From an uncultured Nitrososphaerota archaeon (GTDB lineage: Archaea > Thermoproteota > Nitrososphaeria > Nitrososphaerales > CADDZS01), in contig CAWCYI010000004.1 in assembly GCA_963799845.1 (NCBI GenBank), positions 32,001 to 96,000 of the forward strand: a DNA stretch of 64,000 bases, read 5' to 3'. Of the stretch, positions 21,843 to 45,561 are shown one piece after another; the first letter of the stretch is position 1, and every line of letters begins with the position of its first letter. Position numbers and translations under genes: made by a program. The notes under the pieces were generated by a model. The model made no database searches, was not told the DNA's origin, and was given only the letters and a program-made list of their open reading frames with translations.

Positions 21843-22993
21843 TTATGGGTGGCCGAGAGGTTTCAGAGTTTCCCAAACTGAAGACAGAGCCCCTGATGGA
21901 TCGCAATCAAACCCGAAAGATTTCAGCAATTGGGCTATCGAATCCACAGTAACCGTAACCATCCTTTCGTTGATCTCGCCCATGCTTCCAACTCTGAACA
22001 TGCTTCCCTTCAATTTTCCAAATCCCCCGGCGACTGTTATTCCGAACCTTTCGTCGAGCATTGCTCTAAATTTCTTGTCTTCTACTCCCGGCGGATAGTT
22101 TATTCCGATCACTGTCCGGGATCTGAATTCCTCCCTGGCGAACGCCTTAAGACCGAGTGATTCGAATGCGGAGTAAAAAGCTCGGGCGCACAGTTCGTGC
22201 CTGTGGAATCTTTTCTGGATCCCTTCTTCCAGCACCAGTTTCAGAGCTTCGTCCAGCGCAAAGAGAAGCGGCACTGCCGGCGTCGATGGAGTTTCGTCGT
22301 GCTCCGCGAACTGGAAGTATTTTGGGATGTCAAAGTACTGGTTCCGCGGCTTCATTCCTTGCATCGCCTTCTTTGCTTCCGGACTGAAGGAAACGACAGC
22401 GAGGCCAGGTGGCGCTGCGAGACATTTCTGGCTGGCGGCGATGCAAATATCTGCGCCCAACTTGTCCACCGAGAGATCTTCGCCGCCTAACACACTGATC
22501 GCGTCAACAACGAAGAGTGCACCGTGCTTCCTTGCAAGTTCTCCGAGCTCGACGAGCTTCCGCCAGGTAACTCCGGTGGAAGTCTCGTTAAAGACCACGC
22601 ACAACGCTTTGACCTTGTCGACGCTCTTCAAGGCCTTTTCTACTTCGGCGATCTGGGAGCTTCACCCAGTTCACATTGAGGCCTAAGTACATTAGCGCCT
22701 GTGTAACTGGCCGAATCTCCTAATCTCCCGGAAAACTCGCCGAAGTTAGGCACGACGACAGAATCACCCGTAGTGAAGATCGATCCTACGGCTGCATCCA
22801 CCCCAGCTGTTCCTGATCCGGACAGCACTAAGATTTCATTTGATGTCTGGAAAACTTTCTGGCAGTTGATCCTTACCTTTCGATACAAATCGTGGAACTC
22901 TTCGCCCCGATGGTTGATCATGGGGGATAGCATCGCGTTCGTGACTCGGTCCGGAACGTTTGTCGGTCCCGGTATCATGACGAGTTTTCTCAA
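21843..22993 (-). CDS. Class V PLP aminotransferase (serine-pyruvate/aspartate type), frameshift near 22655
   Basis: MIPGPT, GSGT, NETSTG, VDAIS, SQKCL, FRVGSMG split over two ORFs. Confidence 0.88.
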
Positions 22994-31306: not shown

Positions 31307-32620
31307 TTGATTCGCACGAATTATGTCAATGAGCTTCTCTCTAACATCGGGAAGAACGTCGTCATTGCAGGATGGGTCGAGAACGTCAAGGAACTTCCCA
31401 ATTTGCGCTTCGTCATAATTAGGGATCGAACGGGTCTCGCTCAAGTCACTCTGCACAAGAAAAATTCCCCGCACGAGCTTCTTTCCCTTAGTGAGAAACT
31501 GAATCTCCAAGACGTCATCGCAGTCGAAGGACTCGTGCCCGAGAAACAGATTGCGAAGATCGGTCCCGAGCTGAATCCCACTTCGATCACGGTTCTCAAT
31601 CGATCTGATACTCCGCTTCCGATCGATATTACGGGAACGGTCGAAACCCAGCTTGATCTCAGGCTGGATTGGCGTGTTCTTGACCTGCGGAATCCAAGGA
31701 ACCTGGCCATCATGAAAATTGAATCGAAATTCATGGAAGCAGCCGAGGAGTACCTGCGGAATCATGGATTCATCCAGGTCTCAACCCCGGCAATTCTTGG
31801 CGGATCAAGCGAGGGAGGATCAGAGGTTTTCAAGATCGATTACTTTGGGAACCCTGCATTCCTGAGGCAGGATCCTCAGCTTCACAGGCAGCTCGCGATA
31901 GCAGGTGGACTGGACAAAATTTACGATCTGGGCCCTAGCTGGAGAGCAGAGCTGTCGCATACCCCTCAACACCTTTGCGAACACCATACCTTTGCGGTCG
32001 AAATCGGCTTCTTGAAAGATGAGCTTGACACCGAGCGAGTCGAAGAAGATCTTGTGTCGCATACTCTTGGAAAGCTATCCGAGACGGCGAAAGAGGAGCT
32101 GGAACTTTTAGGTGTGAAACTTGAGAAGCCCAGCACTCCATTTCCTGAAATTAGGTTCCCCGAAGTATACGACATTTTGAGAGAGTACGGCAAGATCATC
32201 CCATTCGGAGAAGAGCCTAATCGAGAGGGAGAAGCCATACTCGCGAAGCATGTAAAGGAAAAGACAAAATCAGATTTCTTCTTTGAGAACAGGTTTCCGT
32301 TCAACGTGAAGCCGTTCTATGTCATGCGTGATGATGCCGATCCGAGGTGGGCGAGAAGTGTTGACCTCGTTTACAAAGGCTTGGAACTCTCGTCAGGTGG
32401 CCAAAGGGAACACCGACATGCCAAGTTGATGGAACAGGTGAAGATCAAGGGCCTGGACGAATCCCAGATATCTTGGTTTACTGAAAACTTCCGCTACGGG
32501 GTACCGCCCCACGGCGGTTTTGCTCTCGGAGTTGAACGGACAATCATGCAGACGCTAGGGATTGAAAATATCCGGGAAGTATGCCTGTTCCCGAGAACGC
32601 CTGAAAGACTAAAGCCCTAG
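31307..32620 (+). CDS. aspS: Aspartyl-tRNA synthetase (archaeal type)
   Basis: OB-fold GWV..RDRTG, motif 2 WRAE, SGGQREH, PPHGGFALGVER. Confidence 0.93.
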   Translation: MIRTNYVNELLSNIGKNVVIAGWVENVKELPNLRFVIIRDRTGLAQVTLHKKNSPHELLSLSEKLNLQDVIAVEGLVPEKQIAKIGPELNPTSITVLNRSDTPLPIDITGTVETQLDLRLDWRVLDLRNPRNLAIMKIESKFMEAAEEYLRNHGFIQVSTPAILGGSSEGGSEVFKIDYFGNPAFLRQDPQLHRQLAIAGGLDKIYDLGPSWRAELSHTPQHLCEHHTFAVEIGFLKDELDTERVEEDLVSHTLGKLSETAKEELELLGVKLEKPSTPFPEIRFPEVYDILREYGKIIPFGEEPNREGEAILAKHVKEKTKSDFFFENRFPFNVKPFYVMRDDADPRWARSVDLVYKGLELSSGGQREHRHAKLMEQVKIKGLDESQISWFTENFRYGVPPHGGFALGVERTIMQTLGIENIREVCLFPRTPERLKP

Positions 32621-36131: not shown

Positions 36132-39100
36132 TTGACAATGGTATCTTCTGAGAAGGTACAGCCTATTCTCTCAAGCTCCTACAACGGAAAGCTGATCGAA
36201 GATGAGATTCGTCAGAGATGGAAGAATGAGAATCTTCGAGAGAAAATTCATCAAAAATTTTCGAAAAAACGACCGAAAGAGGTAGGTTACGTAGACGGCC
36301 CTCCCACTCTCAATGGGGAACCGCACATGGGCCATCTTAGAGGCCGTGTGATGAAAGACCTCTGGTACCGTTTTGAGACCATACGAGGATTATACATAGA
36401 TTTCAAAGGGGGCTGGGACTGCCAGGGGCTCCCTGTAGAACTACAAGCTGAGAAAGAACTTGGGCTTACGGGAAACAAGACGAGCAATCTCAAGGCGATA
36501 GGTGAAGAAACTCTAGTCGAAGCCTGCAAAAAGATGGTGATTCGTTATCATTCGATATGGAGAGATTCGGATGAAAAAATTGGCTTGATGATCGACGATG
36601 AGAAAGCTTACTGGACTTATCGTGATCAATACATCGAAAGAGAGTGGCACATTCTAAAGTCCGCGTGGCAGAACGGTATTCTGTCAGAGGGATATCGCGT
36701 CACTCCATTCTGCCCCAGCTGCCAGACATCGCTGAGCGCGGGCGAGGTAGCGCTAGGCGGATACGAAAACTTGGAAGATCCGTCCATGTACTTCAAAATG
36801 AGGATTCGTGGGGAGGATTCTACCTTCCTTGTGGCGTGGACTACAATGCCATTTACTGTAATTACCGACGAGCTTGTAGGGGTAAAGCCCGAGTCTGATT
36901 ACTGCTTCGTAAGCGTTCCCGCGCCGAATGGAACTCGGGAGACTTGGATTGTCGGAGCCGATCGCCTCGAAGGATTGATGAAGGAGCTTCGGATTCAGAG
37001 CTTCGAAGTATCGAAGAAGGTTAAGGGGAGCGAGCTCGAGGGAAAAAGATACGACTATCCGCTCACAGATCTGGTCCCGGAACAAGGGAGGATAGATTCT
37101 GAAAACGATCTCGTACACTCGATAGTTGCCGAGGAGTTTGTAGATGTCACTACTGGTTCCGGCCTCGTTCACATGGCCCCGGCTAACGGCGAGGATGATT
37201 TTGAAGTATCGCAGAGAAGACATATTCCGATTTTCAATCCTATAGATGACCAGGCAGTTTTCACGGAAAAGGCAGGAGCTTTTTCCGGCCTATTCGTTCG
37301 CGATTCTGACCAAAAAGTCGGAGACGCCCTGAAAGAAAGGGGATCTCTCTTGCGATATGGAAAATTGAAGCATGAGTATCCGGTCTGCTGGCGTTCCGGA
37401 CACAGACTGGTGTGGCTTGCAAGGCGGGAGTACTTTTACTTCGTTGATAGACTGAAGAACCTCGCCGTCGATGGTGCAAGCAACGTCGAGTATTATTACG
37501 ATCCACCTCGAAACAGGTTCATCGAAATAGTGAAGGAAAAAAGGGCTTGGTGCATTTCACGAGAAAGAGTCTGGGGGACGCCGCTCCCCGTCTGGAAGTG
37601 CGATAATTGCTCCGATAAATTAGGGCTGTTCTCCCGCGAAGATATAGTTCAGCGCGCTAAATCGCTTCCTGATGGCCCTAATTTTGAGCTTCACAGGCCG
37701 TGGGTCGATCGGATAATTGTGGCATGTCCAAAGTGCGGCGGCGACATGAGGAGAGAGCCTTTTGTCCTGGACACTTGGCACAACAGCGGAGCCGCTCCGT
37801 ATGCGGCTCACACCGACAAGGAGTATCACGATTACGTGCCCATGCCCTTCCTCACCGAGGGGATAGACCAAACAAGGGGCTGGGCGTACAGCCTTCTGAT
37901 CGAAAACGTGATCTTGTCAATGAAAGCACAATCTCCTTACGATGCATTTCTCTTCATGGGGCACGTCCTAGACGAAAATGGAGAGAAACTCAGCAAGAGC
38001 AAGGGAAACTTTGTTCCGGTTCGTGAGCTGCTCGATGCAAATTCAGTTGATCTGATTAGATTATATTTGAACTGGAAGGCAAGCCCGATAGACTCAATAA
38101 ACTTCAGCAGAGCAGAGATGCTTACAAGACCTTATCAGATTCTCAGTACGCTTTACCACATGCACGTGTTCTATCTGCAGAACGCCAGTTTTGACGGGTT
38201 TTCATTTTCATTCGATGAATCCATGAAGCGCTTGGAAAAAGCTGACGAATCCGTCTTCAAAAAACAGGATAAGTGGCTGCTCTCAAAACTCGGCCTCTTG
38301 ATCGACGATTGTACAGAAGCTTATGCCGAGGCCCAGTATCATGAAGCAGCGAGAGGGATCGAAAATTTTCTGATAGACCTCCTGAGCCAGACCTACGTCC
38401 CGATCGTTCGCGGAGAGATGTGGGAGGAGAACGAGGAAAGCAGGAACCGACGGCAGATCATTTACTCCGTCCTCGGGATCGTTCTGTATCAGGTTGATCT
38501 AATGCTTCATCCGATATCTCCCTTTGTTACCGATTATCTGGCTGCCAAATGTTTCGATGTAGATTATCTTCTTTTGAAAGAGTGGCCCCAGTCAGAGGCA
38601 AGATTCCGAAACAACCGACTCGAATCGGAATTTGACGTTTTATCCAAACTAGTGTCTCTCACAAATTCCGCAAGGATGAAGGCGAAAGTAAAGAGGCGGT
38701 GGCCGCTCAGTAAGGCAATCTACCTGATGGCAGAACCAGAAAGCGAACTCGTAGTTTCGAACAAGAAATTGCTTCTCGAGCAGGTCAATCTGGTCGATGT
38801 CGAATTTGAAACCGACCCCAAGAGAACGCCGATCAAGGTTTCTGTCAAGCCAAACTATCAACTCGTCGCGCCGAAGGTCAAAAGCAGAATGAACGAGCTT
38901 TCGTCCAAGCTTGCGGCTACCGACGCTGCATGGCTTTTCAATCAGATTTCGGAAGAGGGAAAGGCAAGGCTTCCTGAAATGCCCGATTTCGATTTGACGG
39001 AATCCGATGTTATTTTTGAGTTCTCGGCGGCGGATCCCAAGTTTGTAGTTGCCGAGAATTTTGGAATCGTGGTCGCTCTTGACACTTCCCGCGATGATGA

Positions 39101-39371
39101 CCTCATAGCCCAGGGAATCCTCAGAGACTTGGCGAGAAACCTGCAGTCACTTCGGAAGCAGAAGGGATTCAATCCCACCGATGTTTTGGATTCTGCAAAG
39201 ATAGCTGGCTTGGGAGAACAGACGGTTCAGCTGATTAAATCCAAGACCGACGAGCTTGCATTCCTAGTGAGGGTAAAGAAGGTCGAACTTTCTCCAGAAC
39301 TCCCTGCTGAAAGTGAAGGATGGACGAAAGCAGAGATAGACGGCGCGGAAATCAGAATAGACATTTCTTAG
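36132..39371 (+). CDS. ileS: Isoleucyl-tRNA synthetase
   Basis: DGPP..HMGH, GWDCQGLP, WTTMP, WCISR, EGIDQTRGW, KLSKS. Confidence 0.96.
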   Translation: MTMVSSEKVQPILSSSYNGKLIEDEIRQRWKNENLREKIHQKFSKKRPKEVGYVDGPPTLNGEPHMGHLRGRVMKDLWYRFETIRGLYIDFKGGWDCQGLPVELQAEKELGLTGNKTSNLKAIGEETLVEACKKMVIRYHSIWRDSDEKIGLMIDDEKAYWTYRDQYIEREWHILKSAWQNGILSEGYRVTPFCPSCQTSLSAGEVALGGYENLEDPSMYFKMRIRGEDSTFLVAWTTMPFTVITDELVGVKPESDYCFVSVPAPNGTRETWIVGADRLEGLMKELRIQSFEVSKKVKGSELEGKRYDYPLTDLVPEQGRIDSENDLVHSIVAEEFVDVTTGSGLVHMAPANGEDDFEVSQRRHIPIFNPIDDQAVFTEKAGAFSGLFVRDSDQKVGDALKERGSLLRYGKLKHEYPVCWRSGHRLVWLARREYFYFVDRLKNLAVDGASNVEYYYDPPRNRFIEIVKEKRAWCISRERVWGTPLPVWKCDNCSDKLGLFSREDIVQRAKSLPDGPNFELHRPWVDRIIVACPKCGGDMRREPFVLDTWHNSGAAPYAAHTDKEYHDYVPMPFLTEGIDQTRGWAYSLLIENVILSMKAQSPYDAFLFMGHVLDENGEKLSKSKGNFVPVRELLDANSVDLIRLYLNWKASPIDSINFSRAEMLTRPYQILSTLYHMHVFYLQNASFDGFSFSFDESMKRLEKADESVFKKQDKWLLSKLGLLIDDCTEAYAEAQYHEAARGIENFLIDLLSQTYVPIVRGEMWEENEESRNRRQIIYSVLGIVLYQVDLMLHPISPFVTDYLAAKCFDVDYLLLKEWPQSEARFRNNRLESEFDVLSKLVSLTNSARMKAKVKRRWPLSKAIYLMAEPESELVVSNKKLLLEQVNLVDVEFETDPKRTPIKVSVKPNYQLVAPKVKSRMNELSSKLAATDAAWLFNQISEEGKARLPEMPDFDLTESDVIFEFSAADPKFVVAENFGIVVALDTSRDDDLIAQGILRDLARNLQSLRKQKGFNPTDVLDSAKIAGLGEQTVQLIKSKTDELAFLVRVKKVELSPELPAESEGWTKAEIDGAEIRIDIS

Positions 39372-40586: not shown

Positions 40587-41825
40587 ATGCCACTCGTAAG
40601 AATCGGTCTGATCGGAAAGACCAACACTGGAAAAACTACGTTCTACAACTCGGCGACTGCCCAGAGCGCTGAGGTGAGCAACTATGCTTTCACTACAAAG
40701 ACTCCAAACACCGGCGTGGGTCATGCTGCAACATTGTGCGTTCACAGGGAACTTGGAACCAAAACAGACAATCCGAGAAATTCTGTTTGTATTGATGGCT
40801 GGAGGATTATCCCGATTGAAATTATCGACCTCCCTGGTTTGATCAAAGGCGCGTGGCAGGGTCGAGGCCTCGGGAATCAATTTCTCTCGGTTGCCGCGCA
40901 ATCCGATGCTTTGCTTCACATAGTCGATGCTTCGGGCTCGATAGATGCAGACGGGAAAATTTCCAGCCCGGGAGTCGGCGATCCGGTAGCTGACATTGCC
41001 GACATCGAAGAGGAGCTTGCGATGTGGTATCTCAAAATCCTTGACAACAGTTTCGACAAGATCGTTCGCACGATGAAGGGTTCTCCAATGTCGGATTTTG
41101 GCGAGACGGTCAGCGAGCTGATGCAAGGAGTCGGCGTCAAGAGATCTCACGTAATTGAAGCCCTTGGCAGGCAAAAGCTGTACGGCGAGGAGGCAGAAAG
41201 GTGGACTGACGACCAGAGAAGAGAATTTGCGTGGACTCTGAGAGAAGTCTCGAAGCCCACCTTGATAGTTGCAAACAAGATGGACGTGCCGGAAGCAACG
41301 AAAAACTTTGAGAAAATCAGGGAGAGTTATCACGACATGATAGTAGTTCCGGCGAGTGCTGAGTCTGAACTCACCCTCAGGAGGGCAGAGCAGAGCGGGG
41401 CGATACGATACCTTCCGGGAGAGGAACGATTCGACCTTGTAAAGGACGCGAAACTCACGGACAAGCAGCAGTGGGCCCTCTCTCACATCAGCAAAGCGAT
41501 CCTCGGGGAATACATGAGGACAGGAGTACAATTTGCCCTGAACGTAGCTGTATTCAAGCTGCTGAGAATGAACGCAGTATACCCGGTCTCCGATCCGACA
41601 AAATTCTCAGACAATTCGGGTAACATCCTGCCGGATGTCTTCCTGATGCAAAGCGGGTCAACGGTGACTGATCTCGCGCACTCGATCCACTCCGACCTAG
41701 CACGAGGTCTGATTTATGCAGTGGATGCCCGGACTGGTCTGAGACTGCCGGTTGATTATCAGCTGAAAGATCGTGATGTTCTGTCAATCGTTTCAGCCAC
41801 CAAGAAATCAGAGAACAGGAAGTAG
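40587..41825 (+). CDS. ychF: Obg-family ATPase/GTPase YchF with TGS domain
   Basis: GKTNTGKT, YAFTT, DLPGL, NKMD, C-terminal TGS. Confidence 0.92.
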   Translation: MPLVRIGLIGKTNTGKTTFYNSATAQSAEVSNYAFTTKTPNTGVGHAATLCVHRELGTKTDNPRNSVCIDGWRIIPIEIIDLPGLIKGAWQGRGLGNQFLSVAAQSDALLHIVDASGSIDADGKISSPGVGDPVADIADIEEELAMWYLKILDNSFDKIVRTMKGSPMSDFGETVSELMQGVGVKRSHVIEALGRQKLYGEEAERWTDDQRREFAWTLREVSKPTLIVANKMDVPEATKNFEKIRESYHDMIVVPASAESELTLRRAEQSGAIRYLPGEERFDLVKDAKLTDKQQWALSHISKAILGEYMRTGVQFALNVAVFKLLRMNAVYPVSDPTKFSDNSGNILPDVFLMQSGSTVTDLAHSIHSDLARGLIYAVDARTGLRLPVDYQLKDRDVLSIVSATKKSENRK

Positions 41826-43868: not shown

Positions 43869-43943
43869 TGGTAGGGAACGGCGGACTCGAACGCGCCACC
43901 TCCAGCGAGACCGGCTGGAATCCTGCCCTTGGACCAGCTCCCT
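43869..43943 (-). ncRNA. Non-canonical tRNA-like RNA with encoded CCA; loop CGGUCUC (nominal anticodon GUC)
   Basis: AGGGAGC UG GUCC AAGGGCA GGAU U CCAGC CGGUCUC GCUGG AGGU GGCG(C)G UUCGAGU CCGCC GUUCCCU A CCA folds into a full cloverleaf. Confidence 0.8.
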
Positions 43944-44059
43944 GACAAGTAACTTTCGAGACAGCCAATCAAGGTAATAAGCAATTTGCTCATAATCTTG
44001 ACAAAATGACGACTGAATGCCTTTATACTTCGGATAAATCCGTCGTATTACCAATAAAA

Positions 44060-44500
44060 ATGGAAGAAAAGGATGAGGCTATAATTCGCAAGTTGAGAAT
44101 TGATTCAAGCGAGTCGGTTTCTGAAATCGCTTCGGACCTTAATTTGCCCAGAACTACGGTTCAGGAGAGAATCAAGAAAATGGTCCAAAATGGTATAATC
44201 AAGAGGTTCACGCTGCAGCTAGATTATTCGAAAATCGGAAAATCAGTAACCGCGTTTATTTTAGTCTCATTCCTCGCAGGAACAGGAGTCTCTCAGAAGG
44301 AGGCTGCCCAGAAAATTGCCGAGATTGATGACGTGTATGAGGTTCATGTCATCTCGGGAGACTGGGACATTATCGCGAAGGCGAGGGGAGAGTCGATCCA
44401 ATCCATTGGCGAACTGGTTCTCGACAAGATCAGAAACGTGAAGGGCGTGGAGAGAACACTCACCTGCACATCTTTTGTCACGATCAAAGAGACTCTGTAA
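44060..44500 (+). CDS. Lrp/AsnC family transcriptional regulator
   Basis: HTH (EIASDLNLPRTTVQERIKKM) plus RAM domain (ISGDWD); TATA-like TTTATA at ~44022. Confidence 0.93.
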   Translation: MEEKDEAIIRKLRIDSSESVSEIASDLNLPRTTVQERIKKMVQNGIIKRFTLQLDYSKIGKSVTAFILVSFLAGTGVSQKEAAQKIAEIDDVYEVHVISGDWDIIAKARGESIQSIGELVLDKIRNVKGVERTLTCTSFVTIKETL

Positions 44501-44625: not shown

Positions 44626-45561
44626 GTGAATGCACAAGAAGTAATCGCAGACCTCAGAAAACAGGACATTGAAATCCTGACAGAAGAGAGGTTAACCAAG
44701 ATTATCAACGAAATCTCAAAGCCAGTCACGTACATCGGCCTTGAGCCGAGCAACGTCATTCACATCGGGAACCTAAGTGCTTCAATTCCTGTATTCAAGC
44801 TTGCAAAACACGGCTTCCGGGCGATAATACTCCTCGCCGATCTGCATGCCCTCGCGAATGACAAGGGCGAGATCGGGGAAATTCAGAAATTTGCTGAATC
44901 CGATAAAGAGATGTTTGAGAAAGTTGCCAGAAAGATGGGCATCAGTGGCAAGCTCGAATACAAGTTCGGTACCGAGTTTGAGGATCAGAAATACTTTATC
45001 CAGATGTTGAGGCTTTCAAGGGTGATCAACTTTACCGAAGCCGAGAAGAGCATGGACGAGATCAGCAAATCGTCGGTCAGCAGGATGACGTCCTCGTTGA
45101 TTTACCCTCTGATGCAGGTACTTGACATCGGAGAGTTAGGGGTAAATGTCGCGGTCGGTGCGATAGACCAGCGAAAGGTGCACGTTCTGGCGATTGAGAA
45201 TCTCAAGAAGCTCGGGTACCCGACGCCCGTCGCCATTCACTCCAAGGTCATCCTGCAGGGAGTCGATGGAAAGAGAAAGATGAGCAAATCCTTCGGGAAT
45301 ACGATCAATCTAGACGAGAGCCAAGACAGTCTGGAATCAAAGATAAGGAAAGCATACTGCGCTCCCGGCGATGTTGATGTCAATCCTATTCTGGGTTGGT
45401 ACAAAGCTCTGCTCTTTCCAGTCCTCGACCGACCTCTCACCTTCGGTGCCAAGGAAATTGAAAATTTCCCAGTTCTTGAAACGGTTTGGAAGAAAAACGA
45501 GATAACTCCTCAGGAACTAAAACGCTCCGCCGTAAGAGATCTCGCGGAATTGCTAATCTGA
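44626..45561 (+). CDS. tyrS: Tyrosyl-tRNA synthetase homolog with altered anticodon-binding domain
   Basis: YIGLEPS, HIGN, LLADLH, YPLMQVLD, DQRKVH, KMSKS, KAYC; lacks RPxKFGG loop and HPxDLK. Confidence 0.85.
   Translation: MNAQEVIADLRKQDIEILTEERLTKIINEISKPVTYIGLEPSNVIHIGNLSASIPVFKLAKHGFRAIILLADLHALANDKGEIGEIQKFAESDKEMFEKVARKMGISGKLEYKFGTEFEDQKYFIQMLRLSRVINFTEAEKSMDEISKSSVSRMTSSLIYPLMQVLDIGELGVNVAVGAIDQRKVHVLAIENLKKLGYPTPVAIHSKVILQGVDGKRKMSKSFGNTINLDESQDSLESKIRKAYCAPGDVDVNPILGWYKALLFPVLDRPLTFGAKEIENFPVLETVWKKNEITPQELKRSAVRDLAELLI

Follow-up and report, generated by a model that had tools for sequence, protein, structure and literature searches.

We describe a 75-nucleotide (nt) gene for an RNA shaped like a transfer RNA (tRNA), read on the minus strand at positions 43869-43943 of a 64,000-nt stretch of DNA from an uncultured Nitrososphaerota archaeon (positions 32,001 to 96,000 of contig CAWCYI010000004.1, assembly GCA_963799845.1; this whole stretch is called the window in what follows), which is very probably a functional RNA gene specific to its lineage. 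As its sequence and those of its homologs have it, the RNA is a tRNA relative that keeps the cloverleaf and both of the 'identity ends' of a tRNA and has lost what a decoder needs, namely U33 and a purine at position 37. The reading that we favour, with moderate confidence, is that of a non-decoding tRNA paralog in the aspartate/asparagine (Asp/Asn) field, predicted to be controlled by an AsnC-type regulator that is encoded divergently beside it. The genome to which the window belongs (G000) measures 4.6 Mb in 9 contigs, has 47% G+C and is 86.7% complete; its family is f1 and the sister family f9. The features of the gene itself are these:

43869-43943, minus strand: 75-nt gene for a tRNA-shaped RNA, running from its 5' end at 43943 to a CCA encoded at 43871-43869 (from the sequence, ARAGORN with lowered threshold, covariance model R1 at 99.8 bits, and covariation)
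43907-43913, minus strand: anticodon-type loop CGGUCUC, with G33, anticodon GUC (34-36), U37 and C38
43893, minus strand: C bulging from the 5' side of the T stem (from the sequence and the homolog alignment)

Read on the minus strand, the acceptor stem has 7 base pairs (bp; AGGGAGC/GUUCCCU, with A1-U72 and one G-U pair), U8 leads into a 4-bp D stem (GUCC/GGAU, with G10-U25) that encloses the D loop AAGGGCA, the anticodon stem is CCAGC/GCUGG (5 bp), the variable loop AGGU, at 4 nt, gives A15 and U48, and the T arm reads GGCG-C-G / UUCGAGU / CCGCC with the T loop UUCGAGU; A73 and then CCA stand at the 3' end. This agrees with the first-pass annotation of the same DNA, which had reported these four stems with A1-U72 and the bulged C, G at 33, U at 37, a discriminator A in place of G73 and an A15:U48 Levitt pair. 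Two of its smaller claims fared less well: the T-run placed behind the CCA comes down to TTT in the window genome, with longer runs in several relatives, and the tRNA-Val said to lie in this window is absent from the results of ARAGORN, of Rfam (at gathering score and at E<=5) and of a T-arm scan. An intron or a bulge-helix-bulge motif, in the loop or at the T-stem bulge, was considered and rejected, as an RNA of 75 nt and canonical length leaves no room for it.

The gene escapes standard tools. At its default setting ARAGORN reports no tRNA gene across the whole window, and with a lowered threshold it returns tRNA-Asp(gtc) at exactly c[43869,43943]; Rfam at gathering score gives nothing at 43869-43943, and its tRNA model (RF00005) has no match at E<=10 for the window RNA and three other variants, with a control tRNA-Gly scoring 70.6 bits in the same run. 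Among the variants given to default ARAGORN only that of G008 (genus g3), which has U33, is called, as tRNA-Asp. A single-sequence fold returns the cloverleaf at -30.8 kcal/mol, a value not better than that of shuffles (z -0.75), and it is comparison across genomes, not thermodynamics, that lifts the RNA above chance.

Homologs were sought by BLAST in 41 relatives, with R1 over 13 genomes of the family and 151 genomes of the order, and with a structure-spaced pattern that was scanned over 185,579 species genomes (six matches, all in the family of the window RNA) and over metagenome contigs (20 matches); a synteny-guided search added a divergent copy in G011 (48.6 bits with R1). One of the 20 metagenome matches, L077, was attributed to chance, having no cloverleaf (z -0.04), 9-10 bits with R1 and neither a regulator nor a GTPase as neighbour, and it was dropped before all counts. 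What remains is 27 loci, of which 25 are distinct when flanks are included, with 13 distinct core sequences in three genera of one Nitrososphaerales family, whose members are soil archaea; six independent types (G000, G006, G012, G008, G010 and G011) came from BLAST, the covariance model or synteny. Outside the family, the best R1 matches are ordinary tRNAs; 23 of these, tRNA-Gly, Ala and Val genes, were inspected, and none has a GUCUC loop.

In alignment A2 of the 13 cores the pairing holds in 99.3% of pair cells, both sides have been altered in 12 of the 21 pairs, and none of 500 shuffles reaches the observed covariation score; in controls in which the pairing partner was slid along, 39-52% of cells are paired and 0-3 pairs change on both sides. 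An identical 75-mer recurs in ten loci whose flanks share 28% identity over 30 nt upstream and 39% over 30 nt downstream, which shows that conservation ends at the tRNA borders and that the RNA is not embedded in a longer conserved element; the regulators beside these loci are only 73-91% identical to the regulator protein of the window. The proposal of the first-pass annotation that selection on shape, and not decay, is at work here is borne out by these figures. Where it had raised the correction of reads to a canonical loop, the same loop and T-stem bulge were found in independent assemblies, and where it had raised stem-breaking decay, the stems of the homologs stay paired through compensatory changes. 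On this evidence the RNA can be put down neither to an error of sequencing nor to a pseudogene in decay.

A defunct tRNA gene or the scar of an integration event, carried as a passive passenger beside the regulator gene, is accordingly a reading to which we give almost no credence. It would suit the rejection of the window RNA by standard tRNA finders, the unremarkable folding energy and the existence of one family member, G007, that lives without the RNA, but it does not sit with the compensated pairs, with an identical 75-mer amid random flanks, or with a loop pentamer that is invariant across three genera and a promoter motif that is conserved. Nor is there any trace of a mobile origin: G000 holds no second or partial copy (the longest other match has 15 nt), viral contigs gave no match to the RNA pattern, and no integrase is found among the adjacent genes, which are housekeeping genes.

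All 13 cores share A1-U72, G2-C71, G3-C70, A73, C31-G39 and the loop stretch G34-U35-C36-U37-C38. This GUCUC is the most conserved part of the RNA; it is present in all six types that were found without requiring it, and it is kept despite rebuilt anticodon stems (CAGGC/GCCUG in G010, GCCAC/GUGGC in G011), unchanged even where four of the five anticodon-stem pairs differ (variants of G011 and G010). Other parts drift. Positions 32-33 are CG in nine cores, CA in three and GU in one, so that U33 occurs once in 13, and a purine at 37 never does; the D loop ranges from 7 to 10 nt; the T stem is bulged in 12 cores, by 1-4 nt (C, U, AC, CUU or CUUU), and is a clean 5-bp helix in G011; and CCA is encoded in five of the six independently found types, with CUU in its place in G011. 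The encoded CCA and the intact elbow of the first-pass annotation are therefore true of the window RNA and fail as traits of the family, as the G010 and G011 variants have a T-loop UGC and a D loop without GG. Judged by what is kept and what varies, selection maintains the cloverleaf fold together with the acceptor end and the 3' portion of the loop that carries the anticodon, whereas its hold on the bulge, the CCA and the elbow bases is not consistent.

The scarcity of U33 and the lack of any purine at 37 suggest that the RNA is probably non-decoding. It shares with the canonical archaeal tRNA-Asp(GUC) the anticodon GUC, C32 (in most variants), C38, G10-U25, a 4-nt variable loop, the cloverleaf and the promoter spacing, and differs from it at position 33 (G or A for U), position 37 (U for a purine), the discriminator (A73 for G73) and the first pair (A1-U72 for G1-C72), as well as in its bulged T stem, its lack of introns and its unrelated stem sequences. 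The canonical tRNA-Asp of G000 is a separate gene (C4:488362-488476; acceptor GCCCAGG/CCUGGGC, G73, loop ending UGUCAC, two introns), and with orthologs in the five other carrier genomes examined it is present in six of six; the RNA therefore comes in addition to the gene that decodes Asp codons in the cell. A retro-copy of a spliced and CCA-tailed tRNA-Asp was also considered and rejected, the stems being unrelated to those of the genome's tRNA-Asp.

One might still read the gene as a decoder after all, either a second tRNA-Asp or a missense or recoding tRNA that reads GAC/GAU with another amino acid. The strict retention of GUC, the full cloverleaf with CCA, a promoter spaced as in other tRNA genes and the G008 variant, with its U33 and its default ARAGORN call as tRNA-Asp, all speak for this. 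We nevertheless hold it to be improbable: position 33 varies among G, A and U, and drift at this position of a tRNA is not tolerated in a decoder. The loop as a whole, the T-stem bulge in 12 of 13 variants, the silence of the Rfam tRNA model on four variants and the canonical tRNA-Asp alongside point the same way, and a dedicated regulator of the amino-acid type would be unusual for a housekeeping tRNA.

That regulator, of the Lrp/AsnC family, is transcribed away from the RNA across an intergenic region of 117 nt, taking the regulator start as 44060. The region and the regulator gene comprise:

43975-43980, minus strand: TATA-like box TTATTA, at -37 to -32 of the RNA 5' end
43980-43990, no strand assigned: box 2, the palindrome AGCAA-N-TTGCT, abutting the TATA box of the RNA; a conserved block in the upstream alignment
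43999-44011, no strand assigned: box 1, a CGTCA-N3-TG(A/T)C(G/A) palindrome of the type CGTCA-N3-TGACG, which on the plus strand of the window reads TGACAAAATGACG; its conservation shows in the upstream alignment
44022-44027, plus strand: TTTATA, the probable TATA box of the regulator, 33-38 nt before ATG 44060; TATATA/TATAAA is conserved there in the family
44040-44052, no strand assigned: box 0, of a degenerate CA-N3-TG type, between the TATA box and the start of the regulator; GGCA-N3-TGACG in most family loci
44006-44500 (longest open reading frame, ORF), plus strand: Lrp/AsnC-family regulator gene, with Pfam HTH_AsnC-type and AsnC_trans_reg domains, divergent from the RNA

The true start of the regulator is probably ATG 44060 and not 44006, since box 1 runs over the ATG at 44006 and the alignment with orthologs sets in at residue ~19. 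The protein scores 59 bits with the NCBIfam AsnC model, against a cut-off of 227. The TATA-like box, which had been noted earlier as lying about 30-37 nt upstream of the RNA, is found at a distance that matches the other tRNA genes of G000, 23 of 32 canonical ones having an A/T hexamer at -46 to -32. Further copies of the operator boxes in G000 were sought and gave chance-level matches only, with one look-alike at an ORF start (C4:834939).

Among the neighbours of the RNA only the regulator is constant. The two adjoin divergently in 23 of 25 homolog loci, the other two having less than 155 nt of upstream sequence, and they co-occur in the same eight of 13 family genomes; the five genomes that have neither are 58-88% complete, and one of them, G001, is unpublished and enters the analysis with this absence only. 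Twelve loci conserve the order LLM-type oxidoreductase, regulator, RNA, GTPase. G007, at 88% completeness, has the oxidoreductase and GTPase genes 64 nt apart on a contig of 235 kb, with neither regulator nor RNA between them.

What ties this unit to asparagine is the sister family. Beyond f1, the search for the regulator brought up orthologs (46-53% identity) in f9 alone, in 16 of 74 genomes, with none in 18 other families (301 genomes sampled), and in 16 of 18 f9 loci the ortholog is divergent from asparagine synthetase A (asnA); at one of the two remaining loci the contig breaks off, and the other (L117, G197:C63) has no asnA though upstream sequence is present. Five of six f9 proteins score 344-384 bits with NCBIfam NF005054 (cut-off 309), the sixth, from a truncated ORF call, 285.5 bits, and the AsnA-type gene of G000 shares 55-66% identity with the f9 asnA genes. 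The RNA is in none of the 18 f9 regulator loci. Three CA-N3-TG boxes and two TATA boxes form the common layout of the f9 and f1 intergenic regions, the f9 counterparts being TGTCA-N3-TG+TTTATAG before asnA for box 2, CGACA-N3-TGCCA for box 1 and CCAGCA-N3-TGC for box 0. A motif CA-N3-TG-N-TTA(T/A) precedes the RNA by 41-51 nt in 15 of 18 f1 loci and asnA by 33-40 nt in eight of 14 distinct f9 loci, where by our own arithmetic chance would supply about 0.0005 per 70-nt window.

By orthology and layout, the control region of the RNA together with the regulator are the counterparts of the f9 asnC-asnA unit, and since the regulator is orthologous and the layout the same, the RNA occupies the place that asnA has in f9. 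The asnA gene of G000 lies elsewhere (C4:~1.889 Mb) and has no clear box of the CA-N3-TG kind upstream. Two independent lines, the invariant GUC with C38 and the asnA-type control region, thus converge on Asp/Asn, and whether the RNA in fact acts in Asp/Asn metabolism is a matter on which we find ourselves evenly divided.

The identity elements on the RNA can be set beside those of known tRNAs. Aspartate identity comprises G73, G34, U35, C36 and C38 in the account excerpted from PMC9976931, and four of these five strong determinants are present in all variants. According to excerpts of PMC2330236, GatDE reads A1-U72 and not the anticodon, its substrates have a D loop that lacks additional bases, and variable loops of 4 nt, such as the window RNA has, occur in archaeal tRNA-Asp and tRNA-Gln. 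Among the genes of G000 are a GatD-GatE pair at C1:~87.6-90.6 kb and, in the window itself, an AspRS of the aspartate-tRNA(Asn) ligase type. In the mechanism we propose, the AsnC-type regulator would bind the boxes and turn the RNA on upon an amino-acid signal, presumably asparagine supply; the RNA would be matured in tRNA fashion; AspRS would read GUC and C38, and GatDE might read A1-U72; and the loop and T stem would hold the RNA off EF1A and the ribosome, with the break in the T stem presumably helping in most lineages. That the RNA is actually aspartylated we propose tentatively and with some doubt, and GatDE possibly reads it via A1-U72.

A bolder variant of this scheme makes the RNA a ribosome-excluded scaffold for tRNA-dependent asparagine synthesis, set in the asnA slot of the AsnC regulon. 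When asparagine ran short the regulator would switch the RNA on, AspRS would load Asp on it by way of GUC and C38, GatDE would amidate the RNA-borne Asp to Asn via A1-U72 with the anticodon ignored, and the lack of U33 and of purine-37 together with the broken T stem would bar an Asn-carrying 'Asp' adaptor from translation. We consider this variant unlikely. Were it true, it would be the first archaeal non-proteinogenic tRNA, and for the first time an RNA would have displaced an amino-acid biosynthesis gene from its promoter.

The same conservation, the same coupling to the regulator and the same homology to the asnA promoter could also belong to a regulatory RNA or decoy that is never charged, one that binds AspRS, AsnRS, the TGS-domain GTPase or the regulator, or pairs with a GAGAC target, and so tunes metabolism in its uncharged state. 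We rate this as rather unlikely, though it is the chief rival of our reading. No aminoacyl-tRNA transferase family (aaPGS C-domain, FemAB) was found in G000; the YchF-related TGS GTPase is a conserved convergent neighbour in 12 loci; A73 departs from the aspartate determinant G73 listed in the excerpted part of PMC9976931; and the tRNA-Other of Bacillus cereus, as described in excerpts of PMC3399842, is a precedent for a transcriptionally regulated RNA outside translation that alters gene expression. Against it stand the invariant A1-U72, G2-C71, G3-C70 and A73, with CCA in five of the six independent types, which look as though kept for an enzyme of the 3' end, and the end of conservation at the tRNA borders, which unlike tRNA-Other does not suggest a module of a longer regulatory RNA. 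The GTPase, moreover, has orthologs throughout the order, with 59-68% identity in other families, and is present also where the RNA is absent; as a lineage-specific partner of the RNA it was rejected.

Several points weigh against the non-decoding Asp/Asn paralog that we favour, or against the evidence brought for it. Every genome used was assembled from metagenomes. Eleven of the 13 distinct cores were retrieved by a pattern that itself fixes AGGG, T8, GTC, AA, GTCTCGC and CCCTACCA, and alignment A2 is fitted to a model; at the fixed positions, independent invariance comes only from the six types named above. Thermodynamics does not carry the case, as the minimum free energy z-scores run from -1.85 to +0.04 over five variants. 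G010 and G011 show that bulge, encoded CCA and the elbow bases G18G19/U55 are not universal, so that none of these can be essential, and the joint loss of regulator and RNA in G007 could be a single deletion that requires no functional coupling. On the biochemical side, G73 is replaced by A73 throughout, out of the determinants excerpted from PMC9976931, and modelling cited in the excerpted part of PMC2330236 speaks against a GatDE-AspRS complex. G000 already has AsnRS, AsnA-type and AsnB-type enzymes, and no GatB, so that nothing obviously needs a further Asp/Asn device, and searches of this 86.7% complete genome for the aaPGS C-domain and FemAB gave no match. A search of G000 with the LanB N-domain was uninformative, as its controls gave no match either. 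A dedicated synthetase paralog was considered as well and rejected, G000 having one AspRS, one AsnRS, encoded at C6:~517 kb, and one AsnA-type enzyme. Finally, ancestry in tRNA-Gly, to which the RNA bears its closest likeness, is a weakly supported lead only.

Non-decoding tRNA paralogs with cellular roles have been described in a few bacteria and eukaryotes; non-decoding tRNA-derived genes are thus already known as a kind, to which the window RNA would add an archaeal case. The non-proteinogenic tRNA-Gly of staphylococci are extra paralogs with an altered T arm, used for amino-acid transfer off the ribosome and poor in binding elongation factor; they have a normal anticodon loop and feed Fem transferases, whereas in G000 the search found no FemAB homolog. 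In Escherichia coli a regulator of the Lrp/AsnC family is reportedly divergent from its target across a short control region, in the asnC-asnA pair attributed to Kolling and Lother in 1985. The sister family f9 has the same arrangement with an archaeal-type asparagine synthetase A; in f1, by contrast, the target slot holds the RNA gene, asnA is elsewhere, and regulation is predicted from the layout.

A further known system is the tRNA-Other of B. cereus (Rogers et al. 2012), which in the excerpts of PMC3399842 is likewise derived from a tRNA, stands outside translation, is under the transcriptional control of a factor that senses a metabolite, and now fills another role in the cell. It belongs to a bacterium, borders a genomic island and forms part of longer transcripts according to the same excerpts, whereas the window RNA is archaeal, lies amid housekeeping genes, is conserved within the tRNA borders only and keeps its acceptor end and an identity set of the anticodon type. 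Archaeal tRNA-Gln, the partner of GatDE, shares with the RNA A1-U72, A73, a 4-nt variable loop and a short D loop in the excerpted account of PMC2330236; the anticodon of the RNA is of the Asp type and not of the Gln type, and GatDE is known there as the enzyme of Glu-tRNA(Gln). Literature searches for archaeal or thaumarchaeal genes of the tRNA-like or pseudo-tRNA type brought up no archaeal counterpart and no report of the window RNA, and for AsnC, asparagine synthetase A and tRNA-dependent synthesis they yielded nothing comparable. The gene offers an unusually good handle on its function, combining a metabolite-type regulator of its own, the asnA slot of a sister lineage, aspartate determinants in the anticodon and a first pair of the sort read by GatDE. 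As standard tRNA finders and Rfam skip such genes silently, similar ones may hide in other intron-rich archaeal genomes.

The origin of the RNA is a separate matter. Its nearest ordinary relative is tRNA-Gly(CCC/UCC) of the Nitrososphaerales, with which it shares acceptor positions 3-7, U8-G9, the D stem, G26, A73 and CCA; the anticodon stem is identical to that of Nitrososphaerales tRNA-Gly(CCC) in some species, and the likeness lies in the 5' half. The RNA differs from these tRNA-Gly in pairs 1-72 and 2-71, the anticodon loop, the length of the variable loop and the T arm. Identity to tRNA-Gly amounts to 53-54 of 76 positions, a small margin over the 43-51 of 76 for tRNA-Ala, Val and Pro.

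Nearly all tRNA genes of G000 contain introns, one to three each and often at non-canonical positions, which fits the account of Thaumarchaeota excerpted from the tRNAscan-SE 2.0 paper (PMC8450103). An Rfam tRNA search of the genome gave only 12 matches, and ARAGORN in intron mode mislabels several isotypes. Two further tRNA-like loci were seen along the way. A tRNA-Gln-like gene at G000:C8:78364-78439, with A1-U72 and A73, has an anticodon loop of 8 nt (CUCUUGGA) and is labelled tRNA-???(cttg) by ARAGORN. At L045:1759-1822 (G038), about 180 nt from a tRNA-Gly(CCC) gene, a match to the tRNA model at 20.1 bits, below gathering, has a good T arm and a poor 5' half and may be a truncated tRNA.

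The genes around the RNA follow the order IleRS-like ORF, beta-CASP-like hydrolase, YchF-related TGS-domain GTPase, dehydrogenase, SMP-30 family protein, RNA, Lrp/AsnC regulator, TyrRS and EVE-domain protein. The TGS GTPase of the window (40587-41825) has a second, 43% identical relative at G000:C6:93823-95034, and both types are present in most of the 41 genomes. Three aminoacyl-tRNA synthetase genes fall within 14 kb:

31307-32620: AspRS, aspartate-tRNA(Asn) ligase type (NCBIfam), 11 kb from the RNA gene
36132-39371: IleRS-like ORF (read by eye only)
44626-45561: TyrRS (NCBIfam), an ordinary class I TyrRS

Elsewhere in the window, a CRISPR direct-repeat model matched positions 22865-22899 weakly, with 21.1 bits and E 4.8; the score is far under gathering and the match probably due to chance.

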